Origin: a virus
Virus record (IMG/VR): IMGVR_UViG_3300035698_018106
Location: 102,717 to 166,716 of that record
Reading direction: 5' to 3' (one strand)
Length of the DNA stretch: 64,000 nt
Shown here: positions 2,939 through 63,353 of the stretch, piece after piece
How the letters are laid out: each line of letters opens with the position of its first letter
How positions within the stretch are numbered: position 1 is the first letter of the stretch
Made by a program: the position numbers and the translations under genes
Notes under the pieces: generated by a model
Told to the model about the DNA's origin: nothing
Seen by the model: the letters and a program-made list of their open reading frames with translations, nothing else
The model's database searches: none

Positions 2939-3712
2939 TTATTTTTCTTCTAGGGCTTCAATTCGTTCCCTTAATATTAATATTTCATTCTTAAGATTAA
3001 TATCAGTAGACGAATCTTCTATTATGATATTATTAGCTTTTATATTTCCGTCCACATTTAATTTATATATCCCTGGAATATTTCCAATTCCAACGTTTCC
3101 TGTAGATGATATAAGAAATTTAAAATCTGAATAACTACCAGATGAAATTCCTAAAATTGGTCTATTAATAACACATCCATTATTAACATTTCTAGCATCT
3201 AATATTATTGCTGGAATATCAGTATTTTCCCCTTCTATAACTTTACCTATAAAATATAAGCCTGAGTCATCATCATCAGATCCAACACCTATAATTTGAG
3301 GTAAAAACCCACTATCTGTAGCATTTCCTATAGATATACCAAATATACCATCCCCTATATGAAGAGCAGTTGTTCTCGTGTTAACAGGGACACTGATATC
3401 AAATCTATAATCATGTAAAGGATATCTATTTAAACCAACTTGTCCGTCTCTAAAAAGGAACGGAGTGTCGTCTAGAGGATTTTGAATAGAACAATCAATT
3501 TGTATATCTCCTGTAGAACTATTAGATATAATTATATTAGAAGAACCTATTAAAGAGGTCCATCCAATATTGTCATTATGAGATAAAAATTTAACATCGT
3601 TTTCTTCATTAGAAAATAATGGAACCAATTCAACTATATTAAAATTATCACTTCCATCTTTAGTTATTTGGTTAAGAATTAAATTTTTATTATCTTTTTT
3701 ATTAAATGACAT
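2939..3712 (-). CDS. hypothetical protein with a Gly-rich beta-repeat region (GNVGIGNIPG) and a C-terminal coiled coil
   Basis: 257-aa ORF. Gly/Asn/Ser-rich with a GNVGIG motif reminiscent of phage fibre proteins. C-terminal heptad-like sequence LKNEILILRERIEALEEK. Confidence 0.4.
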   Translation of the reverse strand: MSFNKKDNKNLILNQITKDGSDNFNIVELVPLFSNEENDVKFLSHNDNIGWTSLIGSSNIIISNSSTGDIQIDCSIQNPLDDTPFLFRDGQVGLNRYPLHDYRFDISVPVNTRTTALHIGDGIFGISIGNATDSGFLPQIIGVGSDDDDSGLYFIGKVIEGENTDIPAIILDARNVNNGCVINRPILGISSGSYSDFKFLISSTGNVGIGNIPGIYKLNVDGNIKANNIIIEDSSTDINLKNEILILRERIEALEEK

Positions 3713-4510
3713 TTATTTTTTTGGATCGTCTTGTTTTTTATCAGAATTTTTAGATTCTAAAGGAGGTTTGCGCTTTTTCCATTCTTTTTTAAGTTCTCCT
3801 AAATATTTACAATTTTCATATTTTTCTTTATCTTTAAATGATTCTATCATTCGATCTATAACTTCATCGATATGTTTATTTTCTATAATTACAATGGTTT
3901 TAGTATCAGCAAAAATAACAAAAGGCTTATTTTCTTCAATTGGTTCCTTATCAAAATTTTCACGGACGTAATCATATATCTTCTGAGATAATTGTTCCCA
4001 ACCTCCATCTATATAAAAATTATCATTTTGTTCGGTTGGATTAAAACTTAATAAAACTCTCTTATCTTCAGTGTATCCCATAGTCGTTAAGAAAATCATA
4101 CTGGTAGGATTTATAGATTCAGATGCTTCAATATCCCGGGCATTTTCCTCAGCAATAATATGAGTTTTTTCATGGATAAATTCTCCCATTTGTTCTAACC
4201 ATTTAGGATAGGTTTTATATTGAATATCATCAGTTAGATTCCATGAAGGATCTATTTCAGAGTCATGTATTAATATTATATGTGAATAAACATCATAATC
4301 GACCATATCAGAACAAATTCTATTAAATTCAATATCGACTGGTTCTTCTATCTCACCCCATAAACACCAAGTATTAGGTACTTCTGGTAATCTAAACGAA
4401 GATACAAATTTATAATCTTTAAATGTCTTGGATAATTCATCGTCGGTATAAACTTTATCTTTAGGATACATCTCTTCCGCTATTCCATTACTATATATAA
4501 TTAGGCTCAC
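3713..4510 (-). CDS. hypothetical protein with a basic C-terminal tail
   Basis: 265-aa ORF abutting the upstream gene. No motif recognised. Confidence 0.45.
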   Translation of the reverse strand: MSLIIYSNGIAEEMYPKDKVYTDDELSKTFKDYKFVSSFRLPEVPNTWCLWGEIEEPVDIEFNRICSDMVDYDVYSHIILIHDSEIDPSWNLTDDIQYKTYPKWLEQMGEFIHEKTHIIAEENARDIEASESINPTSMIFLTTMGYTEDKRVLLSFNPTEQNDNFYIDGGWEQLSQKIYDYVRENFDKEPIEENKPFVIFADTKTIVIIENKHIDEVIDRMIESFKDKEKYENCKYLGELKKEWKKRKPPLESKNSDKKQDDPKK

Positions 4511-4575
4511 ATTAAAGTTTTTTATTTGAAAATATTTTATAATTATTATATGTATCTAAATCTAAAAAGTTTACT

Positions 4576-5619
4576 TTATTTGTTAAACCTTTTAAATGCT
4601 GCATTTGTGATATGTTCATAATCTACATATCCAATAAACTTATGAATTTTATCATATCCACAATAACTCATATTTGTCCGTAAATAATCTTCAAAATTCT
4701 CTATCCAAGATTCTAATGTATATTCTACTTTTTGTTTCTTTGTTATTCCTTCAGCTGTTTTAATTTTATCTTTACCCCATTTTCTTTGAACAGCTTTAGT
4801 ACTCATTCCTCTATATTCTTTTTTAATAGTAAATCCCTTTTTCCATAATCTATTCGCTAGTTTATATGGGATTTTAAAACCTAAAAAATAATTACTTCCA
4901 GAACTTTCGATAGCTTTATTAAAAATAGATCCTAACATTATATAATCAGCACCTAATCCTAATGCTTTTATGATATCATCATATCCTTGCATACCACCAT
5001 CAATAACTATTTTAGTATTCCAGAATCCTCCTTTTATCTTTTCTTCTCTACATTCTTTTATTAAAGATCCTATAGGATAATTAATTGCGGCATTTGCTGC
5101 AGTTGTACAAGCCCCACCAGTTCCTATAGAGCATCTTATATAATCTGCGCCGGCCATTGCTAAATTTTTATATGTTAAAGGGTGGGCAACATTACCAACC
5201 ATTAAAATGATAAAAGGGCGTAGTTTCTTAATAGCTTTTATAACATCTATTAATCTTTGCATATGACCATTAGCTATATCTATTAATATACGCGGGTAAT
5301 GTTGAATATATTTAGTATCATATATATCACCATTTGCTGCGCGCTCTAAATCTTTTTCTATTTCAACAAGTCCTAATGATTGAAAATATTTACCTTTATT
5401 TATAAGATGTTCATCTTCAAATCCTCTAGGTAAACAAGGCACTATTTTATTTTGTATATAATGTTCTAGATTTTTCTCTGAAATAACAGTATCCATTGGA
5501 GATGCCATTAATGGTAAAGTTCCATCTTGTTCTGTATCACATTCACTTCTACTATTAATTGGGCTAACAATAGCAGGAGTAATTACAATGTCTTTTAAAT
5601 CGAATTTAATATCTTTCAT
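4576..5619 (-). CDS. GMP reductase-like protein (IMPDH/GMPR TIM-barrel family)
   Basis: 347 aa, the same length as GuaC. Motifs: LPLMASPMDTV (compare IIAANMDTV), CSIGTGGACTTAANA (compare GIGPGSVCTT, catalytic Cys loop) and VIDGGMQGYDDIIKALGLGADYIMLGS (compare SDGG...GADFVMLGG). There is no CBS-domain insertion. Confidence 0.55.
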   Translation of the reverse strand: MKDIKFDLKDIVITPAIVSPINSRSECDTEQDGTLPLMASPMDTVISEKNLEHYIQNKIVPCLPRGFEDEHLINKGKYFQSLGLVEIEKDLERAANGDIYDTKYIQHYPRILIDIANGHMQRLIDVIKAIKKLRPFIILMVGNVAHPLTYKNLAMAGADYIRCSIGTGGACTTAANAAINYPIGSLIKECREEKIKGGFWNTKIVIDGGMQGYDDIIKALGLGADYIMLGSIFNKAIESSGSNYFLGFKIPYKLANRLWKKGFTIKKEYRGMSTKAVQRKWGKDKIKTAEGITKKQKVEYTLESWIENFEDYLRTNMSYCGYDKIHKFIGYVDYEHITNAAFKRFNK

Positions 5620-5649
5620 AATTTTTATATGATAAAATATTTAAAAAGT

Positions 5650-6447
5650 TTAGATTAATTTATCTTCTTCATCTTCTTCATCAAATTCATCATCTTCAGG
5701 GAATGTAATTTCTTCTTTTGGTGGAAGATTAATTTCATCATCGGGTAACATTGCTGGTTGTGGTCCTGAAATTGAAGGTCTAACTAATGGTTCATTTTGA
5801 GATGAAGGCTGTTCAGGAACTTTTGAATCTATTTTTGGTTCTAGAGGTTCTTCTATATCATCTGGTTCATTAGTAGTAACAATAATATCGTCCTTTTTGA
5901 CATTATCAACAGGAATACTTTTATCATGAATATCTAATGGTTTTTCTTCATCAGGTGATGATATATCTGTATCACTATAATCTGTTGGAATTTCTGGAAC
6001 ATCATCTGGAACAATAGATGGCTTAAATGTAGGTTCTGATTTAGGTACTACTGGTCTTTGTTCAACATCTTTTTCTTTTGGCATTAATTTGTCAGCAGGT
6101 TCTTCAGTTTTTGGAATTTTATCACTAATGGATATCTTAGGTTTTCCGGTTTCTTTATCTACATCTAATACAATTTCTTTACTTCTATTAGATACGCTTC
6201 TCCATTTATTTTTATCTAAATCATAAAATGCAGCCACTTTATCTGATGATGGATTTTCTCCTGTTGGCTGTTCGGCAGTTGGTACATATTTCATCATAGT
6301 TGTACCTTTTGCGGGTCTAACATCTCCATCAATTTTTATAAATTCGAAATTAAGAATCTTTTTATTAAGAACTTTTCTAAGTTCCTCAACAGAAACTGGT
6401 TCTCCAACTAAAAGTTTTTCATTAAGAGTAGACCTAACAATATGCAT
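5650..6447 (-). CDS. hypothetical protein with a conserved-looking N-terminal domain and a Pro/Asp/Glu-rich disordered C-terminal tail
   Basis: 265-aa ORF. The C-terminal 180 aa are low-complexity (P, E, D, K). The GGATATATAAAATAA motif lies 10 nt upstream. Confidence 0.5.
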   Translation of the reverse strand: MHIVRSTLNEKLLVGEPVSVEELRKVLNKKILNFEFIKIDGDVRPAKGTTMMKYVPTAEQPTGENPSSDKVAAFYDLDKNKWRSVSNRSKEIVLDVDKETGKPKISISDKIPKTEEPADKLMPKEKDVEQRPVVPKSEPTFKPSIVPDDVPEIPTDYSDTDISSPDEEKPLDIHDKSIPVDNVKKDDIIVTTNEPDDIEEPLEPKIDSKVPEQPSSQNEPLVRPSISGPQPAMLPDDEINLPPKEEITFPEDDEFDEEDEEDKLI

Positions 6448-6481
6448 ACAAAGTAGTTTATTTTATATATCCAATAAAAAA

Positions 6482-6506
6482 AGCTCTGAGTTATCAGAGC
6501 TTTTTT
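6482..6506 (-). terminator. rho-independent terminator downstream of the RNR gene
   Basis: Stem AGCTCTGA / TCAGAGCT with loop GTTA. Flanked by an A-run on one side and a T-run on the other, so it could act bidirectionally. Confidence 0.6.
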
Positions 6507-6526
6507 ATCCTATTTTTAATAATTTA

Positions 6527-9076
6527 TTAACCACACCTTGAAAAACTACAAGATGTACAATGAACACACCCTTCTTCTCTTATTAAATCAGCTTTACAAT
6601 CAGGACATTTCTCTTCTAATTTTACAGATTCTTCATATCTGCTCAAGTATCTCCTAACAACTGATGAAAAAGAAGTAATATTTTCATCTATTTTTTTAAT
6701 TACATTATTAACATGAGATATAGGGGCACCATGACGCAATAACATAGAGGCAGTTAACGTTAATATTTTAAACTCAATTCTATCTGCGGCTATTTGAAGT
6801 TCTTCTATTTCAAATTCACCATTAATAAACTTATAATGTCCTTTTTTAACTTTGATAATCTTACCTGTTGTGTTTTTAAGACTTGGAGGATTCTCAAACC
6901 CCATTATTTCATAAGGTCTATTAGTTCCAGGCCATTTACCTATAATAACAGCAAAATCTCTTCCATCTGCTTTAGCAGCATAATAATCTGCTTCTAATTC
7001 TTTAGGTCTTTTTGGTGCATTTGATTCTGGAAATTCTTCTATTTCATTTGTTTCTTCTTTTTTACTTAATATAACACCTGTTCTAGATCCTTCTCTATAA
7101 ATAGTGCAACCTTTGCATCCGGCTTTCCAAGCTTCAAAGTATATATCATTAACTTCTTTCTTAGTTGTTTGTGATGGTAAATTATGAGTTACTGAGATTG
7201 AATGGTCAATCCATTTCTGAATAACACCTTGCATTCTTACTTTTTCTAAATAATCAATTTCATGAGATTCAGATCCTGCCCAAGGAGATTCTTTTATAAT
7301 ATCATTTAAATTAGATTCAGATAAACCATTAAGATAAATATCAACATCAATTATTTCTTTTCCTTCTTTAGTAGTTTTATACCATTCTAAGAATGTAGTA
7401 TGTAAAACATTAAATTCTTCCCATGAATCACCATTTTCATCAACAAAATCAATTTTAACAGTAGGATCATTAGGATTAACTTTTTTCCTTCGTAATGATA
7501 TAATTTTAAATACAGGCTCTATACCTGAAGTGGTTTGAGATGCTATTGCTAATGTACCAGTTGGAGCAATAGATAATGAAGCGATATTTCTTCTACCATA
7601 TTTTATATAATCCTCATATTCTGCAGTACTAAAATTAGCAGAAATAATTCTATTAATGAATGGATTATTAGATTCTTTATCGTAATTCCATATAGGAAAT
7701 GCTCCTCTTTCTTTTGCTAATTGAACAGTTTCTTTATAACAACTAACAGCTAGATTTTTAAATATTTTATCGATGAATTTAGTAGATTCTTTAGATCCAT
7801 ATCGCATACCTAATTTAGCTAGCATATCACCTAGTCCTAATACACCAATACCGGTTCTTCTTCCATTTCTTAGCACAGTCAAAACATTATTCCATGTTTC
7901 CAACTCAACTCTTTTTAATAGTTTAGCTTCCGGATCTTTTTTAATTTTTGCTAAAATCTTCTCTATTTTTTCTTCTTCTAATGATACAATATCATCCATA
8001 GTACGTTGAGCAAATCTAGCAGTTTTTTCTAATTTAGCCCAATCTATTTTAGCATTTTTCTTAAATGGATTTTTAACATGATTTGATAAATTAAGTGATC
8101 CTAATCTACATGAATCGTAAGATGACAAAGGAACTTCGCCACATGGATTTGTTCCTTTAGTTTCGAATCCTAAATCTGCATAACAATCTGATGGAGATTC
8201 GGATATTATTGAATCCCAAAATAAAATGCCTGGTTCTGCATTTTTATGGGCCATTTCAATAGTTTTATCCCATAATTCTTTGGCTTTTATCCTTTTTATA
8301 TACATACCATTATCTAATTTATGAATAGCATCATATGGTGTTTGTATATCAATTTTAGGTTGTTTGTTTGTTGTTGGCCAATGTAGAATATAATCTTGAT
8401 CTTGTTCAACAGCTTTCATAAACTCATCAGTTACTTTAAGAGAAACATTAGCTCCAGTAACTTTAGATAAATCCGCCTTTTTAATAACAAATGTAGGGGA
8501 ATCTGGATGATTAACATGCATACTAATCATTAATGCTCCCCTCCTACCGTCTTGTGCAACTTCTCTAGTTGTGTTTGAATATCTATCCATAAATGAAGGA
8601 GCGCCGGTTGAAGATTGGGCTGAGTTATTAACATAACTGCCTATAGGTCGAAGATTTTCTATAGTAATACCAACACCTCCTCTTCTTTTCATTAATTGTG
8701 CAATTATTTCATCAATATTAATAATTGCGCCATAAGAATCAGAGTTATTATCTATAAAAAAACAATTTCCAAGAGATGACATTTGGTAATTATTTCCTAA
8801 CCCAAATAATATAGACCCTCCATAAATGAAATTTCCAAATCCTTTTAAATTATCATATATCTCTTCTTTATTAAGAGGGTGTGGATATTCTTGTTCTTTC
8901 CTAAAAATCTCATTTGTTATTCTATTAATAGTATTATCAGGCATTAATTCTATAAACTTTCCTTTTTCTTTAAGTGCATACTTATTAATCCAAACTTGTG
9001 TTGCTAAATTATCACCCTTAAAATAAGGTAAAGTAGCATCATTAAGTTGATCAATTGTATAGGTTTCATTAGTCAT
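6527..9076 (-). CDS. nrdJ: ribonucleotide reductase, class II (adenosylcobalamin-dependent, monomeric NrdJ-like) with a C-terminal Zn ribbon
   Basis: 849 aa. Active-site motif TNPCGEVPLSSYDSCRLGSLNL (the class II NPCGE...CxLGSxNL pattern). Glycine-rich GGVGI segment. C-terminal CPDCKADLIREEGCVHCTSCSFSRCG. Confidence 0.8.
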   Translation of the reverse strand: MTNETYTIDQLNDATLPYFKGDNLATQVWINKYALKEKGKFIELMPDNTINRITNEIFRKEQEYPHPLNKEEIYDNLKGFGNFIYGGSILFGLGNNYQMSSLGNCFFIDNNSDSYGAIINIDEIIAQLMKRRGGVGITIENLRPIGSYVNNSAQSSTGAPSFMDRYSNTTREVAQDGRRGALMISMHVNHPDSPTFVIKKADLSKVTGANVSLKVTDEFMKAVEQDQDYILHWPTTNKQPKIDIQTPYDAIHKLDNGMYIKRIKAKELWDKTIEMAHKNAEPGILFWDSIISESPSDCYADLGFETKGTNPCGEVPLSSYDSCRLGSLNLSNHVKNPFKKNAKIDWAKLEKTARFAQRTMDDIVSLEEEKIEKILAKIKKDPEAKLLKRVELETWNNVLTVLRNGRRTGIGVLGLGDMLAKLGMRYGSKESTKFIDKIFKNLAVSCYKETVQLAKERGAFPIWNYDKESNNPFINRIISANFSTAEYEDYIKYGRRNIASLSIAPTGTLAIASQTTSGIEPVFKIISLRRKKVNPNDPTVKIDFVDENGDSWEEFNVLHTTFLEWYKTTKEGKEIIDVDIYLNGLSESNLNDIIKESPWAGSESHEIDYLEKVRMQGVIQKWIDHSISVTHNLPSQTTKKEVNDIYFEAWKAGCKGCTIYREGSRTGVILSKKEETNEIEEFPESNAPKRPKELEADYYAAKADGRDFAVIIGKWPGTNRPYEIMGFENPPSLKNTTGKIIKVKKGHYKFINGEFEIEELQIAADRIEFKILTLTASMLLRHGAPISHVNNVIKKIDENITSFSSVVRRYLSRYEESVKLEEKCPDCKADLIREEGCVHCTSCSFSRCG

Positions 9077-9118
9077 ATTAACATATTTATTTTAATTCAT
9101 TATTTTTAAGCTGTATTA

Positions 9119-10555
9119 TTAAATAGTAGCTTTTAATCTTCGTTCTTTAATTTTTTGCAATTCATCCATCTCAATATCTGCTCTTTGAGATGTCTTTTTA
9201 GCCACTTTTCGTTGAGCATAAAAGTTAGCTAATATTTCTGGTATTAATGGTTCAAATGACGCGTCAAAAACAGCTCCAGATGAACATTTTATTTGATTAT
9301 CATTAGTTTTATAAAGTTTATCTTTGGTTATAAAATTCTCTATAGATATCATAAATTGTCTCATGATAGAAGGATAAAGAGATGCAAAGTCAAAAGAAGC
9401 TACCCAACCATATAAACCAGGTACAGGCTCAAATACAAAAGCTCCTTCGAATTGTTCTCTTTGTTTCTTATCCCATATTTTCGGAAATACTTGTTTCCTT
9501 TTATATGCATATCTAGATAAAGTGGCTTCCAACATTTGTATAGGAGAAAATGCATTCATAGCTTCAACCTGAGTAATATTTCCAAGTCCTAAGAAGGTAC
9601 TCATGGTTTTCAACTTTTCGTCCATTAATTCAACAAGAACAGAATCAATAGCATTATAGAAAACATATAATTCATAATCTTTATTAAACAATTCTTGAAA
9701 TGTTCCACCATATTTAACTTTTCTAATTCCGGTAGCTGCTTCAGCCACAAAATCTAATGTATTATTTTCCTTTACATCAATTGTTCTATCCCATTTCATA
9801 TAAATGGACATATAATCAACAATTAATTTATGTTGAGGAAGCATGATAGTCTTTGTTTTACCTCTGTCTTTTATTCTGTGTTCATACCATTGTCCGGTGG
9901 GTGACATCCAAGATATATCCATTCCTAATCTTTTTGTACATCTATTATAAATATACAACCAATCATATCCCCAAAAATTCCACCCTGTTATAAGAGGTGC
10001 TGTTCTAGCATAATTATATAACCAATCATATAACATATCAGCTTCATTATCATATTGTTTATAAACAAATTTATATTGTCTATCGTATTTGTCAATATGT
10101 TTATTAATGCTTTTTTCTATTCTATCGCATTCTTCACCCGATAAAGGTTTTAAACCAAATACTATGATATCCGGATATCTAACCCATGATATTGAATTAA
10201 TTCTATTTTTTGCCTCATCAGCTCCTGGAAATCCTTCATCAGTAACATCTACTTCAATATCACAAGCATATAATTTAGGGAGATTACGTTCGAATAAATG
10301 TTTTGTGTTAGCTTCGCCTGCATCCATAAAAAATTCTTGAATTCTGTGTTTATCAAGAAATTGTGATGGTCTTTTTGAAACTGGTTTATTGTCCCATGAT
10401 TTAATACCAGGAACAGCTTTACTTTGTTGATTAGTATATGAATAAGAATATTGGTGGTTTGAGGGTATAGCTAATTGAGAAAAAGCTACTTCACCTTCTT
10501 TATTAATGTATGAGACGACCATACGTCCTTGTCTTTGTTCTATATTTATTACCAT
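9119..10555 (-). CDS. DNA polymerase, family B, T4 gp43-like: N-terminal fragment (3'-5' exonuclease domain through polymerase motif A) only
   Basis: 478 aa, collinear with T4 gp43 residues ~100-470. Matches: LYACDIEV (Exo I; T4 VANCDIEV), ITGWNFWGYDWLYIYNR (T4 FTGWNIEGFDVPYIMNR), FYNAIDSVLV (Exo II; T4 YNIIDVESV), FEGAFVFEP (T4 FPGAFVFEP) and SFDFASLYPSIMRQ (motif A; T4 SFDLTSLYPSIIRQ). The ORF stops before the KxxxNSxYG and YGDTDS motifs. The RNR start codon lies 42 nt downstream. Confidence 0.8.
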   Translation of the reverse strand: MVINIEQRQGRMVVSYINKEGEVAFSQLAIPSNHQYSYSYTNQQSKAVPGIKSWDNKPVSKRPSQFLDKHRIQEFFMDAGEANTKHLFERNLPKLYACDIEVDVTDEGFPGADEAKNRINSISWVRYPDIIVFGLKPLSGEECDRIEKSINKHIDKYDRQYKFVYKQYDNEADMLYDWLYNYARTAPLITGWNFWGYDWLYIYNRCTKRLGMDISWMSPTGQWYEHRIKDRGKTKTIMLPQHKLIVDYMSIYMKWDRTIDVKENNTLDFVAEAATGIRKVKYGGTFQELFNKDYELYVFYNAIDSVLVELMDEKLKTMSTFLGLGNITQVEAMNAFSPIQMLEATLSRYAYKRKQVFPKIWDKKQREQFEGAFVFEPVPGLYGWVASFDFASLYPSIMRQFMISIENFITKDKLYKTNDNQIKCSSGAVFDASFEPLIPEILANFYAQRKVAKKTSQRADIEMDELQKIKERRLKATI

Positions 10556-12080: not shown

Positions 12081-13040
12081 TTATTTATCATGTTTTAAAT
12101 AAGGAGTAATAGAATTGGAAATTAAACGAGTTTTATATGATTCAGTTACATTTTCTTTAGAAGTTAAAGTGGCTCTAGGAAGTTGTTTTCCTTCAGCATA
12201 TATAGTTAATATCTGATCTCCTTTAGAATATTTTCTTATAGTATTGTCTGGATTTTTACCATATTTTTCCCAACCACTTTTTTCTATTTTTTCTAATACA
12301 TTTGGAATAGTATCTGTTATAAATACTCTATCAATTCCTGATTTTCCTGGTTTAAATTCATATGATATACCTAAACCATCTAGGGCATCTTTAGCTTTTA
12401 CATCTTTTAATGCTATATCATCTCTTAAAGACGTTTCATTAACTGTATCAGATTTCTTCTTTTTTATTGAAGTTAATGGGTGATCAGGTACGTGTTTAGA
12501 TGCCTTTTGGTAATCATCTAGAGTTTCTATATTAAATGATTCATTTTTATTTTTGAAATCTTGTAATATCGTATTTGTTTTAGAATCCTTTTTCTTGAAT
12601 GGAGGTTTTACACCCATTTTTTTAGCCATCATATTTCCGATTTTATCATATGGATTTATATTATTTTCGTTAGTTTGTGTTCCTATAGAAGCATCACTCC
12701 AACTATCTCCTGAACCAGAAGGTCCATCTGTATTTAATCCAGCTGATGCAGCAGGTACTGCACTTCCCATTCCTGGTGTATTAACAGTAGTTGCCATTGG
12801 AGCAGATACGCCACCAACATCTTCATTCACAGTCCCCATCAATTCATCATCAGATAAATTTATTAATAATCCATCCCATTTTTTTATAGCCATTTCTTTT
12901 GTTTTAGAAGGAGGCCCTTCTGCATGACATATTGAACATGTTATTGCATAACTAGCTTTTTCACCACTTGGCATTTCAGCATCTTTTCCTAGAGAAAATA
13001 CCCAAGTTTCATTTGAATTACAAAAAGGACATTGTTTCAT
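12081..13040 (-). CDS. Lar-like (restriction-alleviation family) Zn-ribbon domain protein with a disordered linker and a C-terminal domain of unknown function
   Basis: 319 aa. N-terminal MKQCPFCNS...CSICHAEGP...EMAIKKWDGL matches the CPFCG...C..C...GP....A...WN pattern of the Lar family. The Gly/Ser/Thr-rich segment is low-complexity. Confidence 0.5.
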   Translation of the reverse strand: MKQCPFCNSNETWVFSLGKDAEMPSGEKASYAITCSICHAEGPPSKTKEMAIKKWDGLLINLSDDELMGTVNEDVGGVSAPMATTVNTPGMGSAVPAASAGLNTDGPSGSGDSWSDASIGTQTNENNINPYDKIGNMMAKKMGVKPPFKKKDSKTNTILQDFKNKNESFNIETLDDYQKASKHVPDHPLTSIKKKKSDTVNETSLRDDIALKDVKAKDALDGLGISYEFKPGKSGIDRVFITDTIPNVLEKIEKSGWEKYGKNPDNTIRKYSKGDQILTIYAEGKQLPRATLTSKENVTESYKTRLISNSITPYLKHDK

Positions 13041-46641: not shown

Positions 46642-47850
46642 ATGATCAAACAAGAATTTAATTGGGAAATGTATAACGACGGATATACAGGAAATAAACT
46701 AGTTTCCAATATGAAAATCATAGGTTCAGATAATATTAAAAGCAAGTGTTTTTCACGAGAACCATATGCTCAACGCCTTTTTGACACATATACAAATCAA
46801 AGTGGGAATATAATCAAAAAGGATTTAAATAAAGGGGATTGTGTTTTAGTTAATGATATTTTCAATATAACTAATGAAACAATAGATATAGAAATAGCTG
46901 GAGGAATGTCGGTTACTATAGATCTTAAAAGAGAAAAAAGATTTCTACAAATGTTTGGATTTAACGATATTTCCGATTTTTCAGAAAAAATATCCAGCAG
47001 ACCTTATTTAGACAAATTATTAGAAGAGAATTTAAAGGCATATGTAATTGAAGCATCTCCTTCAATTAAAATTTCATTATGGCAAGGATATCTAATGGGA
47101 ATTAGAGAAGAGTTTATGGATCAAATTAATAATCCATCAAAAGCATATAATTGTAAAGTTAAAGAAGCTAATAAAGGCGGATTCTTTGTAGAAGTCCAAG
47201 GTTTAGATGCTTTCATGCCAGGTTCATTAGCAGCTCCTAATAAAATAAATGATTTTCAATCATATGTAGGTAAAGAAATAATTGTTATGGTAGAAGATTA
47301 TCTTAATGATATGAATTCTTTTATTGTATCTCATAAAAAATATATTAAACATATATTACCTCAAAAACTATCTGAAATAGATACCATGGTAAAGCATTCC
47401 GGTAAAGTAACAGGCGCATCAAAATATGGAATATTTATAGAATTTGGAGAATTTTTTACTGGATTACTTCATGAATCTAAAATGACAGAAGAAACAAAAG
47501 CTTTATTCAAAGCATGGCATTATAAACCAGGCGATCCTATTGAGTTTTATGTTGGGGAAATTACAAAAGATCTTAGAGTTATTTTAACCGAAGAAGATCC
47601 TCAAGTAAAATTAGCAAAAATACAAACCTTTGTAGTTAATAACGCAAATAAAGTGGTTGAATCAAAAATTGTTGCTATAATGAAATTTGGTGTAATTGTA
47701 AATGTTGATGATGTTACAGGATTAATTCCATTAAAAGAATTTAAAAAACATAGAATATTTATTAATAACTTTATAGTTAATGATACTATAAAAGTAGAAT
47801 TCGACGAATTTAATGAAGATAAGATTTTGTTTAAGTTAGGTGGAGTTTAA
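46642..47850 (+). CDS. S1-domain RNA-binding protein (at least three, probably four, S1/OB repeats; bS1-like)
   Basis: 402 aa. Repeats: KVKEANKGGFFVEVQGLDAFMPGS; HSGKVTGASKYGIFIEFGEFFTGLLHESKM; VESKIVAIMKFGVIVNVDDVTGLIPLKEF. Each fits the S1 signature G.V......G.FV......GL.H.S. Confidence 0.55.
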   Translation: MIKQEFNWEMYNDGYTGNKLVSNMKIIGSDNIKSKCFSREPYAQRLFDTYTNQSGNIIKKDLNKGDCVLVNDIFNITNETIDIEIAGGMSVTIDLKREKRFLQMFGFNDISDFSEKISSRPYLDKLLEENLKAYVIEASPSIKISLWQGYLMGIREEFMDQINNPSKAYNCKVKEANKGGFFVEVQGLDAFMPGSLAAPNKINDFQSYVGKEIIVMVEDYLNDMNSFIVSHKKYIKHILPQKLSEIDTMVKHSGKVTGASKYGIFIEFGEFFTGLLHESKMTEETKALFKAWHYKPGDPIEFYVGEITKDLRVILTEEDPQVKLAKIQTFVVNNANKVVESKIVAIMKFGVIVNVDDVTGLIPLKEFKKHRIFINNFIVNDTIKVEFDEFNEDKILFKLGGV

Positions 47851-62753: not shown

Positions 62754-63353
62754 TTATTCATTCACTGGGATAACATGCTCTTTTCTGATTTGTTCTCCTT
62801 CTTCATCATGAAAAGAGTATACTCCTTTTCTAAAAGTTAATTCAAACGGTTCTTCTAATTTTTTGGCATATTTTTTACCTTCTCCTGGATTAACATATGC
62901 TAACGTCATATGTGGGTGATAATCTGGATAAGTTTGAGTGTTACTAAAATTATTTTCAAATTTATCTCTATATTGTTGAAGCTGATCACTAACAGGTACA
63001 TCATATTTAACAACATCATATTCTTCACCTTCAAAATATGAAATTTCATCTACTGTTACAGTAAGTGCTTCAATATCATTTTGTATAAGGTCCATTATTA
63101 TTTCCGGATCAATTTCATCCTCATGAATTCCGTATAATACAGTTACATGGGGATTATCTTCTAAACCGTATGAATCATCATATGGCTTTGTATATACATC
63201 TTTGGGGTCAATACCATCAGTATGTTTTTCCTTCCAATCAGAAATATCATTGGCATCTAACATAACACAACCATATGTCTTTTGTTCTTTATTTTTCTTA
63301 GGTTTTTCTTGATTGGTACTATCCCACTCATTTATTGATATAAATTTCTTCAT
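62754..63353 (-). CDS. 2H phosphoesterase (LigT / cyclic phosphodiesterase superfamily)
   Basis: 199 aa. Two H-x-T-x motifs about 75 aa apart: NPHVTVLYG and HPHMTLAYV. Confidence 0.55.
   Translation of the reverse strand: MKKFISINEWDSTNQEKPKKNKEQKTYGCVMLDANDISDWKEKHTDGIDPKDVYTKPYDDSYGLEDNPHVTVLYGIHEDEIDPEIIMDLIQNDIEALTVTVDEISYFEGEEYDVVKYDVPVSDQLQQYRDKFENNFSNTQTYPDYHPHMTLAYVNPGEGKKYAKKLEEPFELTFRKGVYSFHDEEGEQIRKEHVIPVNE

Follow-up and report, generated by a model that had tools for sequence, protein, structure and literature searches.

The 64 kb window analysed here, namely the whole stretch of 64,000 nucleotides taken from the IMG/VR virus record IMGVR_UViG_3300035698_018106 (positions 102,717 to 166,716), contains on its minus strand an open reading frame (ORF) that runs from ATG to stop at positions 4576..5619 and encodes a 347-residue protein resembling GMP reductase (GMPR). 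Genes for gp32, a UvsW-like helicase, PolB, the baseplate wedge and a tail fibre mark the window as part of a tailed phage, and the GC content of 27.4% agrees with the AT-rich phage (about 30% GC) of the original prediction for this DNA. When 20 kb of the window were compared by megablast with 50,697 phage records, no match was returned, and the window therefore has no close sequenced relative; a tRNA scan of the window found none. The length of the protein and its motifs are as previously claimed: LPLMASPMDTV corresponds to residues 35-45, CSIGTGGACTT to residues 163-173 and the DGG...GADYIMLGS stretch to residues 205-231 (VIDGGMQGYDDIIKALGLGADYIMLGS). The claimed absence of a CBS insertion is equally clear, the CBS region of Escherichia coli GuaB facing a gap in the query. 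Because the N-terminus aligns with homologs from residue 1-5, the annotated start is a credible one. Along the minus strand, the gene order is dUTPase, a 78-residue ORF, a 128-residue ORF, the N-terminal part of PolB, NrdJ, a WYL_2 protein and finally the GMPR-like gene (table 1).

Table 1. Position of the GMPR-like gene, its sequence features and its main neighbours in the window.
Feature	Position	Strand	Evidence
IMPDH/GMPR-superfamily enzyme, CDS, 347 aa (virus-lineage GMP-reductase-like)	4576..5619	-	PF00478, PHROG 9582, AlphaFold2 model, Foldseek
Catalytic loop, residues 164-173 (SIGTGGACTT)	5101..5130	-	aligned to E. coli GuaC
Asp207-Gly-Gly, barrel motif that binds the ribose hydroxyls and the phosphate	4993..5001	-	alignments
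Clade-specific insertion of ~20 residues (242-266, strand-strand-helix), before YRGM	4822..4896	-	alignment A2, hhalign
Flap region, residues 269-294 (YRGMSTKAVQRKWGKDKIKTAEGITK), ending Glu290-Gly291	4738..4815	-	clade flap counts, alignment
Upstream copy of 56-nt imperfect direct repeat, containing the start codon	5605..5660		repeat search
Downstream copy of 56-nt direct repeat, covering the stop codon and the intergenic sequence after it	4526..4581		repeat search
Protein with WYL_2 (Sm-like SH3 barrel) N-terminal domain, 265 aa	5650..6447	-	PF10902 E 6.3e-13
NrdJ, class II (adenosylcobalamin-dependent) ribonucleotide reductase (RNR)	6527..9076	-	TIGR02504 482 bits (cutoff 400); PF02867 E 1.2e-93
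dUTPase-domain protein, 229 aa	11326..12015	-	PF00692 39.6 bits (cutoff 22); below NCBIfam dut cutoffs

The protein is a (β/α)8-barrel of the superfamily formed by IMP dehydrogenase (IMPDH) and GMPR. Its best Pfam match is PF00478 (123 bits vs. a gathering cutoff of 25.6, E 1.9e-35), as had been anticipated, and not another TIM-barrel family: FMN_dh (25.7 bits) and Glu_synthase (22.8 bits) produced only marginal matches confined to the common phosphate-binding segment, while nitronate monooxygenase and dihydroorotate dehydrogenase gave no Pfam match at E up to 1. Assignment to the FMN-dependent TIM-barrel oxidoreductases is thus not supported, PF00478 being the best profile match. Among phage families, the protein matches PHROG 9582, which is labelled only 'dehydrogenase', at E 1.9e-47. 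The top-ranked NCBIfam model is that of the GMP reductase NF003470, matched over the full length with 106.5 bits (equivalog cutoff 397); the other three GMPR models score 85.3 bits (TIGR01305, cutoff 492), 96.2 bits (NF003966, cutoff 344) and 91.9 bits (TIGR01306, cutoff 466), and the IMPDH model TIGR01302 scores 97 bits (cutoff 481.5), all below their equivalog cutoffs. The AlphaFold2 model, built from 39 homologs, has a pLDDT of 85.8 and a pTM of 0.86. It is disordered only in the Cys loop (167-178) and in the flap (273-290), which are the mobile elements of IMPDH/GMPR enzymes; the low pLDDT over the flap is as expected for such an element. Foldseek searches with this model retrieved the IMPDH 5uxe (E 3e-24, TM 0.75) and human GMPR1 (2bwg, E 1.2e-23, TM ~0.75).

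To compare catalytic residues we used an alignment (A2) including E. coli GuaC and GuaB, the type 2 GuaC of Staphylococcus and two phage GMPRs. Cys171, the predicted thioimidate nucleophile (codon 5107-5109), aligns with Cys186 of E. coli GuaC, Thr173 with Thr188, Gly271-Met272 with Gly268-Met269 and Glu290, which is followed by Gly291, with Glu289. Asp207 aligns with Asp219 of GuaC, and the Asp207-Gly-Gly motif is invariant across all alignments, canonical GMPR and IMPDH included. Gly166 and Gly168 align with G181/G183 of GuaC, which UniProt/HAMAP annotation assigns to the K+ site, and are the predicted glycines of this site. In a diverse alignment (A3) of the clade to which the protein belongs (see below), Cys171 is invariant, confirming the expected conservation of the catalytic Cys, and Thr173 and Glu290 are retained in at least 90% of the sequences; Gly271-Met272 and Gly291 are likewise invariant or nearly so in the clade, and the C-x-T/S pattern is universal among 242 clade sequences. 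E. coli GMPR requires all three of the residues corresponding to Cys171, Thr173 and Glu290, namely Cys186, Thr188 and Glu289 (PMC2525682). The enzyme almost certainly performs Cys-thioimidate chemistry at the C2 position of a purine.

One region that discriminates between the two enzymes of the superfamily is the flap, which in GMPR is truncated and lacks the Arg418-Tyr419 dyad activating water in IMPDH (PMC2525682). A flap motif can be recognised in 242 sequences of the clade, of which 217 have a spacer of 15 residues between G-M-S and E-G, also its length in the query; this spacer has 17 residues in GuaC, 10 in type 2 GMPR and 24 in GuaB. An R[YF] dyad is present in none of the 242 sequences, and the GuaB segment containing it, SSDRYFQ, lies opposite a gap in the query. 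The clade profile could be aligned by hhalign along the full length of both type 1 GMPR (score 243) and type 2 GMPR (score 249, E 2e-36), while its alignment with IMPDH (GuaB) was restricted to the C-terminal 215 columns (score 197). The features separating GMPR from IMPDH, a check of which had been proposed, favour GMPR: the flap is short and GMPR-like, the Arg-Tyr dyad and the CBS domain are missing, and the alignment covers both GMPR types from end to end.

With IMPDH (GuaB; TIGR01302; EC 1.1.1.205) the protein shares the barrel, the catalytic Cys and Thr, Asp-Gly-Gly and YRGM; it differs in having neither the CBS/Bateman subdomain nor the Arg-Tyr dyad, and in its flap spacer (15 vs. 24). 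Could it nevertheless be an IMPDH devoid of CBS, which would convert IMP to XMP and boost guanine synthesis, with the E-XMP* intermediate hydrolysed via an ancestral Thr-Glu pathway of water activation? The top sequence matches in the PDB, which are CBS-deleted bacterial IMPDHs (4mz1, E 1.7e-25), and the top Foldseek matches, also IMPDHs, are in line with this alternative, as is the presence of the Thr-Glu pair that is able to activate water in IMPDH (PMC2525682). However, the PDB ranking is skewed because IMPDH entries far outnumber those of GMPR, and the IMPDH alignment is limited to the C-terminal two thirds. Moreover, no clade member has the dyad, the flap is nine residues shorter than in IMPDH, and loss of Arg418 makes hydrolysis ~1000-fold slower (PMC2525682). 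An enzyme increasing G would also fit poorly with carriers that all have 24-38% GC. We consider this alternative very unlikely and think that the enzyme is probably a GMPR, rather than an IMPDH or something else.

Canonical GMPRs are of two types. Those of type 1 (E. coli GuaC, human GMPR1/2; NF003470/TIGR01305; EC 1.7.1.7) have in common with the query a single-domain barrel of ~345 residues without CBS, the Cys-x-Thr loop, Glu-Gly after a short flap, the motifs ID(I/V)ANG and GMS(S/T), and an aligned Arg in the flap (AMKRH in GuaC, AVQRK in the query). They differ from the query in that the latter has a flap two residues shorter with its own invariant motif, an insertion of ~20 residues before YRGM, and Ala, Ser or Thr instead of Arg after C-T-T. 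Type 2 GMPRs (Bacillus/Staphylococcus GuaC; NF003966/TIGR01306; 1ypf) resemble the query in architecture and catalytic residues and give the best hhalign score, but have a flap of 10 residues, FGSAS in place of YRGMST and CITK in place of CTTA. The claim that the protein is 'GuaC-type' thus holds for its GMPR-like features; it does not extend to family membership, for the protein fails all four GMPR equivalog cutoffs and falls in a virus-dominated lineage of its own.

Several features are specific to this lineage. The flap motif GMSTKxVQ..WGK is invariant, including Gln278 and Trp281, and so is Arg279 between them; the insertion is a gap in all canonical GMPR and IMPDH sequences of alignment A2 and is larger in Lak phages; and the residue following C-T-T is A, S or T, as opposed to R or K in four canonical GMPRs and E. 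coli GuaB. These peculiarities, together with the separate lineage and scores under all equivalog cutoffs, speak for the alternative that the enzyme uses its Cys for another reaction at the C2 position of purine nucleotides. Its substrate might be dGMP, XMP or a nucleotide of 2-aminopurine/2,6-diaminopurine, or it might contribute a step towards the precursor of a modified DNA base. The neighbourhood of the gene also speaks for this alternative: in 11 of 80 lineages, DUF1599 ('nucleotide modification associated domain 1') is encoded no more than 10 kb away, and 14 of 80 have a glycosyltransferase gene as direct neighbour. However, these associations are confined to few sub-lineages (4 and 3, respectively, of 22 groups defined at 60% identity), and none of the neighbours is an obligate partner, as would be required by a modification pathway of several steps. 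In addition, all residues aligned with the canonical motifs of the IMP/GMP site are conserved, including the ribose-binding Asp, and we know of no purine-modification pathway using an enzyme of IMPDH fold. A different reaction is therefore unlikely in our judgement. A related and similarly doubtful proposition is that the lineage constitutes a fourth functional class with its own substrate (a deoxy or 2-amino-purine nucleotide), cofactor or physiological direction, in which case specificity would be set by the GMSTKxVQ..WGK flap, the insertion and the absence of a basic residue following C-T-T.

How widespread is this lineage? A word-indexed search gave 5,444 matches at E ≤1e-10, the best 120 of which are all metagenomic and share 56-67% identity with the query (plus one exact match). 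When 1.84 billion representatives were searched exhaustively, 420 clusters (defined at 50% identity) were retrieved at E <1e-30; canonical enzymes reach only ~1e-25, a value from a comparison with the PDB, which is a far smaller set. In IMG/VR, a pattern scan turned up at least 539 viral contigs carrying the gene, many of 250-500 kb. The relatives in sequenced phages are found in the huge phages LR756500-504 (43-46% identity), the crAss-like phage cr108_1 (YP_010111148; 39%) and the Lak megaphages (34%), which share 34-46% full-length identity with the query, belong to the same lineage and are grouped in PHROG 9582 under database labels only. The enzyme is a divergent member of a fourth lineage of the IMPDH/GMPR superfamily, one that is large and viral with hardly an exception.

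The few exceptions are cellular. A pattern scan of 185,579 bacterial and archaeal species (one genome each) found about seven members of the clade, with 37-41% identity to the query and nearly all on contigs of metagenome-assembled genomes (MAGs); all other matches were canonical enzymes with no more than 30% identity. In a rough neighbour-joining tree, the four full-length cellular members (L093, L094, L095 and L098) all nest inside the phage clade, and this nesting of a cellular sub-branch within phage sequences suggests transfer from viruses to cells. In an Alphaproteobacteria MAG (L093, 6001-7080), the gene adjoins those for NAPRTase and a Zn-peptidase; in a Draconibacterium MAG (L098, 5974-7074), it adjoins genes for a HAD hydrolase, a radical-SAM protein and a glycoside hydrolase. 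A link with 7-deazaguanine that might be drawn from the latter radical-SAM neighbour was discarded, this protein being only weakly similar to glycyl-radical activases and not a QueE.

Inteins are typically inserted in the most conserved catalytic sites of essential enzymes for replication and nucleotide metabolism. Six representatives of the clade (P0168, P0181, P0226, P0227, P0241 and P0256) contain Hint/intein domains at the position of the catalytic Cys. The junction GIGxGxx/CF...HN/C[TLI]T could be read in five of them, with the catalytic Cys as the +1 extein residue; in the sixth, P0181, the junction motifs were not found. The presence of inteins at the position of Cys171 may be taken as an independent sign of functional constraint, and this insertion site in the IMPDH/GMPR fold appears to be undescribed so far. 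The region of the GMPR-like and RNR genes is a hotspot for selfish elements in close relatives of the window. The RNR genes beside the GMPR-like gene contain inteins and HNH domains (L002 1347-4832, L005 1451-4270), and, directly after the GMPR-like gene in the downstream direction, the opposite strand carries a NUMOD3 homing-endonuclease gene (L002 11058-11765, L005 11040-11711). No such elements are present in the same region of the window.

Taken together, the above results lead us to conclude that the enzyme would work like a GMP reductase, yet is a member of neither canonical GMPR family. We infer GMP as substrate and NADPH as cofactor, and likewise which way the reaction runs and what purpose it serves in the infection. 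In the mechanism that we propose, Cys171 would attack C2 of GMP and ammonia would leave, protonated through a Thr173-Glu290 relay; the resulting covalent thioimidate E-XMP* would then be reduced by NADPH to IMP, while the short flap without Arg-Tyr would avoid its hydrolysis to XMP. Host PurA and PurB would subsequently turn IMP into AMP, so that surplus guanine nucleotides, deriving for instance from degraded host RNA, could be re-routed to adenine for a genome that is ~73% A+T. As a whole, including its physiological role, the reading of the protein as a stand-alone, NADPH-dependent GMP reductase that rebalances purines from G to A for AT-rich replication is one that we hold to be true with slightly better than even confidence.

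Such a function would have several implications. It would define an auxiliary metabolic gene widespread across T4-like, crAss-like, Lak and other huge phages, in which the re-routing of guanine to adenine would complement the known pyrimidine route to dTTP via dUTPase and thymidylate synthase, and it would link a single enzyme to the base composition of viral genomes. A superfamily whose mechanism is well studied would gain a fourth lineage, distinguished by its flap, and a PHROG so far labelled only 'dehydrogenase' could be named after its function. If, instead, the activity differed from that of GMPR, it would represent a new purine chemistry in phages.

The base composition of the carriers bears directly on the proposed role. 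We considered the best 80 hits per scan and used NrdJ as a control, retrieved with the same tool and subject to the same best-80 bias. Viral carriers of the clade (n=115) range from 24 to 38% GC, with a median of 31% and none above 40%; the named phages Lak-B8 (26%), LR756502 (31%) and LR756500 (24%) have values in the same range. The NrdJ control (n=78) spans 20-58% GC, with a median of 35% and 21% of the contigs above 40%, while viral contigs with canonical GMPR1 (n=80) span 25-46%, with a median of 38% and 33% of them above 40%. The GC range of the carriers supports selection of the enzyme in AT-rich phages. Canonical GuaC-type GMPRs are also common in viral contigs, with 575 confirmed matches that include giant-virus MAGs (L279-L358 were sampled). 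Given that the 80 sampled contigs all lie between 25 and 46% GC, an association of GMPR with low GC may not be confined to this clade.

Which genes accompany the enzyme? NrdJ and dUTPase, both predicted nearby, were indeed recognised (table 1). The WYL_2 gene precedes the GMPR-like gene on the same strand at a distance of 30 nt, and the two are probably co-transcribed; the WYL_2 product has a long acidic, Pro-rich tail of low complexity and reaches 1114 residues in the closest relatives. These relatives maintain the order PolB - RNR - WYL_2 - GMPR-like - ... - NAD ligase, while the pairing of WYL_2 with the GMPR-like gene is seen in only 8 of 80 lineages overall. In cr108_1, the homolog similarly resides within a block of nucleotide metabolism, following genes for B12-RNR, dUTPase, PolA, thioredoxin, a metallophosphoesterase and, in adjacent position, thymidylate synthase. 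We clustered 1,766 neighbouring ORFs from 85 carrier loci and found dUTPase to be the commonest neighbour (15 of 64 groups). We also counted neighbours with hidden Markov models (HMM) in 120 loci, corresponding to 80 groups at 85% identity. Within 10 kb of the gene, dUTPase is present in 19 of these 80 lineages (adjacent in 13), HD hydrolase in 17, metallophosphoesterase and glycosyltransferase in 16 each, and RNR in 13. Nucleotide-metabolism neighbours thus recur in independent lineages, but neither the clustering nor the HMM counts identified an obligate operon partner. For this reason, a one-enzyme shunt fits better than a multi-step pathway. The purine-conversion 'module' of the original prediction is accordingly a loose one: NrdJ and dUTPase belong to the locus, but are near the gene in a minority of lineages.

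The same chemistry might serve a different end, namely the depletion of guanine nucleotides rather than the supply of adenine. Lower GTP or GMP could stop host translation and stringent signalling, or starve defence signalling that depends on GTP derivatives. All the evidence at the level of enzymology is common to this alternative and to the G-to-A reading; furthermore, the phage encodes no PurA/PurB in the window to complete the conversion of G to A, and further candidates for counter-defence are found there (a 2H phosphoesterase weakly matching Acb1, and a Lar-like domain, see below). What depletion leaves unexplained is that the viral carriers are all AT-rich, whereas relatives carrying NrdJ are not. 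Additionally, the gene groups with genes of dNTP supply (NrdJ, dUTPase and thymidylate synthase) and not with anti-defence genes, and no result ties it to a defence system. We thus regard depletion as an improbable role for the enzyme.

Returning to the reading of the protein as a GMPR that rebalances purines from G to A, a number of observations weigh against it and need to be considered together. At the level of the protein, the scores are 3- to 5-fold under all four GMPR equivalog cutoffs; identity to the aligned canonical GMPRs is only 25-30%, with 26% to E. coli GuaC and 29-30% to type 2 GMPRs (29% to Staphylococcus GuaC); the tree mentioned above places the clade apart from GMPR1, GMPR2 and IMPDH alike; and GMPR and IMPDH tie in the fold search, so that they are not separable by fold. 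The clade also has its own flap motif, the ~20-residue insertion and no basic residue after C-T-T, and its substrate or cofactor specificity could therefore differ. In the literature we did not find a characterised phage GMPR of this lineage. With regard to the physiological role, the window does not encode PurA or PurB, and the conversion of G to A would consequently depend on the host enzymes. Phage homologs of PurA are mostly of PurZ type and from actinophages, and the organism and host tallies listed for them have no Lak entries (PurB was not searched). Of the earlier idea that GMP is converted to IMP to feed AMP, the rebalancing from G to A remains plausible, while the enzymes from IMP to AMP are not to be found in the window. 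The p-values of the GC comparison are inflated by best-80 sampling and non-independent loci. Finally, the four full-length cellular members lie in contigs of 43-50% GC, and both cellular contexts examined (L093 and L098) are non-phage. The suggested link with AT-rich genomes survives the control with NrdJ, which carries the same sampling bias.

The remaining claims about the neighbourhood were not confirmed. The 128-residue ORF, formerly considered a DUF4406/Rcl-like protein, has only a sub-threshold match to DUF7768 (23.3 bits, cutoff 26) and none in NCBIfam or PDB. A HAD phosphatase had been listed too; none was found by Pfam and NCBIfam models among ORFs of at least 90 residues in the replication and nucleotide part of the window, nor by tblastn with the HAD_SAK_2 protein of a relative or a scan for the DxDxT motif.

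The GMPR-like ORF is bracketed exactly by two copies of the 56-nt direct repeat (table 1), which are 73% identical and spaced by 1079 nt. The core of the repeat, ACTTTTTA-N11-ATATAA, occurs twice in the whole window, a number of matches that is reached in 2 of 100 shuffles. The upstream copy ends with AATTATG, in which the start codon is included, while the downstream copy has AATTATA. The repeat may represent the boundary of a cassette, a recombination scar or a regulatory element common to two consecutive genes; its presence only at both flanks of the gene speaks against a general promoter motif. Promoter-like sites are not enriched around the gene, with 30 found against 39.9 expected. Between nrdJ and the WYL_2 gene, a perfect palindromic hairpin of 13 bp with A6/T6 flanks (AAAAAAGCTCTGAGTTATCAGAGCTTTTTT, 6477-6506) is the sole terminator-like site in the region 3500-9500 and separates nrdJ from the WYL_2/GMPR-like pair; it could terminate transcription in both directions. 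On the other side of nrdJ, and directly next to it, lies the PolB ORF (9119-10555, minus strand, 478 residues), which comprises the exonuclease domain and ~125 positions at the start of the polymerase domain. Since relatives have the same product, with 482 residues, the polymerase seems to be split; its C-terminal part was not located.

Three other proteins of the window deserve mention. The 2H phosphoesterase (62754-63353, minus strand; 199 residues) belongs to the 2'-5' RNA ligase superfamily (E 5.9e-13) and weakly matches the anti-CBASS protein Acb1 (E 8e-5, below cutoff), features that make it a candidate counter-defence gene for the degradation of cyclic nucleotides. The first ~55 residues of a 319-residue protein (12081-13040, minus strand) resemble the restriction-alleviation protein Lar, with 27.7 bits in Pfam (cutoff 28.6) and 28.9 in NCBIfam (cutoff 39.6). 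Finally, a protein of 402 residues encoded on the plus strand (46642-47850) has three repeats of the S1 RNA-binding domain (E 3.8e-22), which is unusual in a phage, and is located where coding strand and GC skew switch, near 46 kb.

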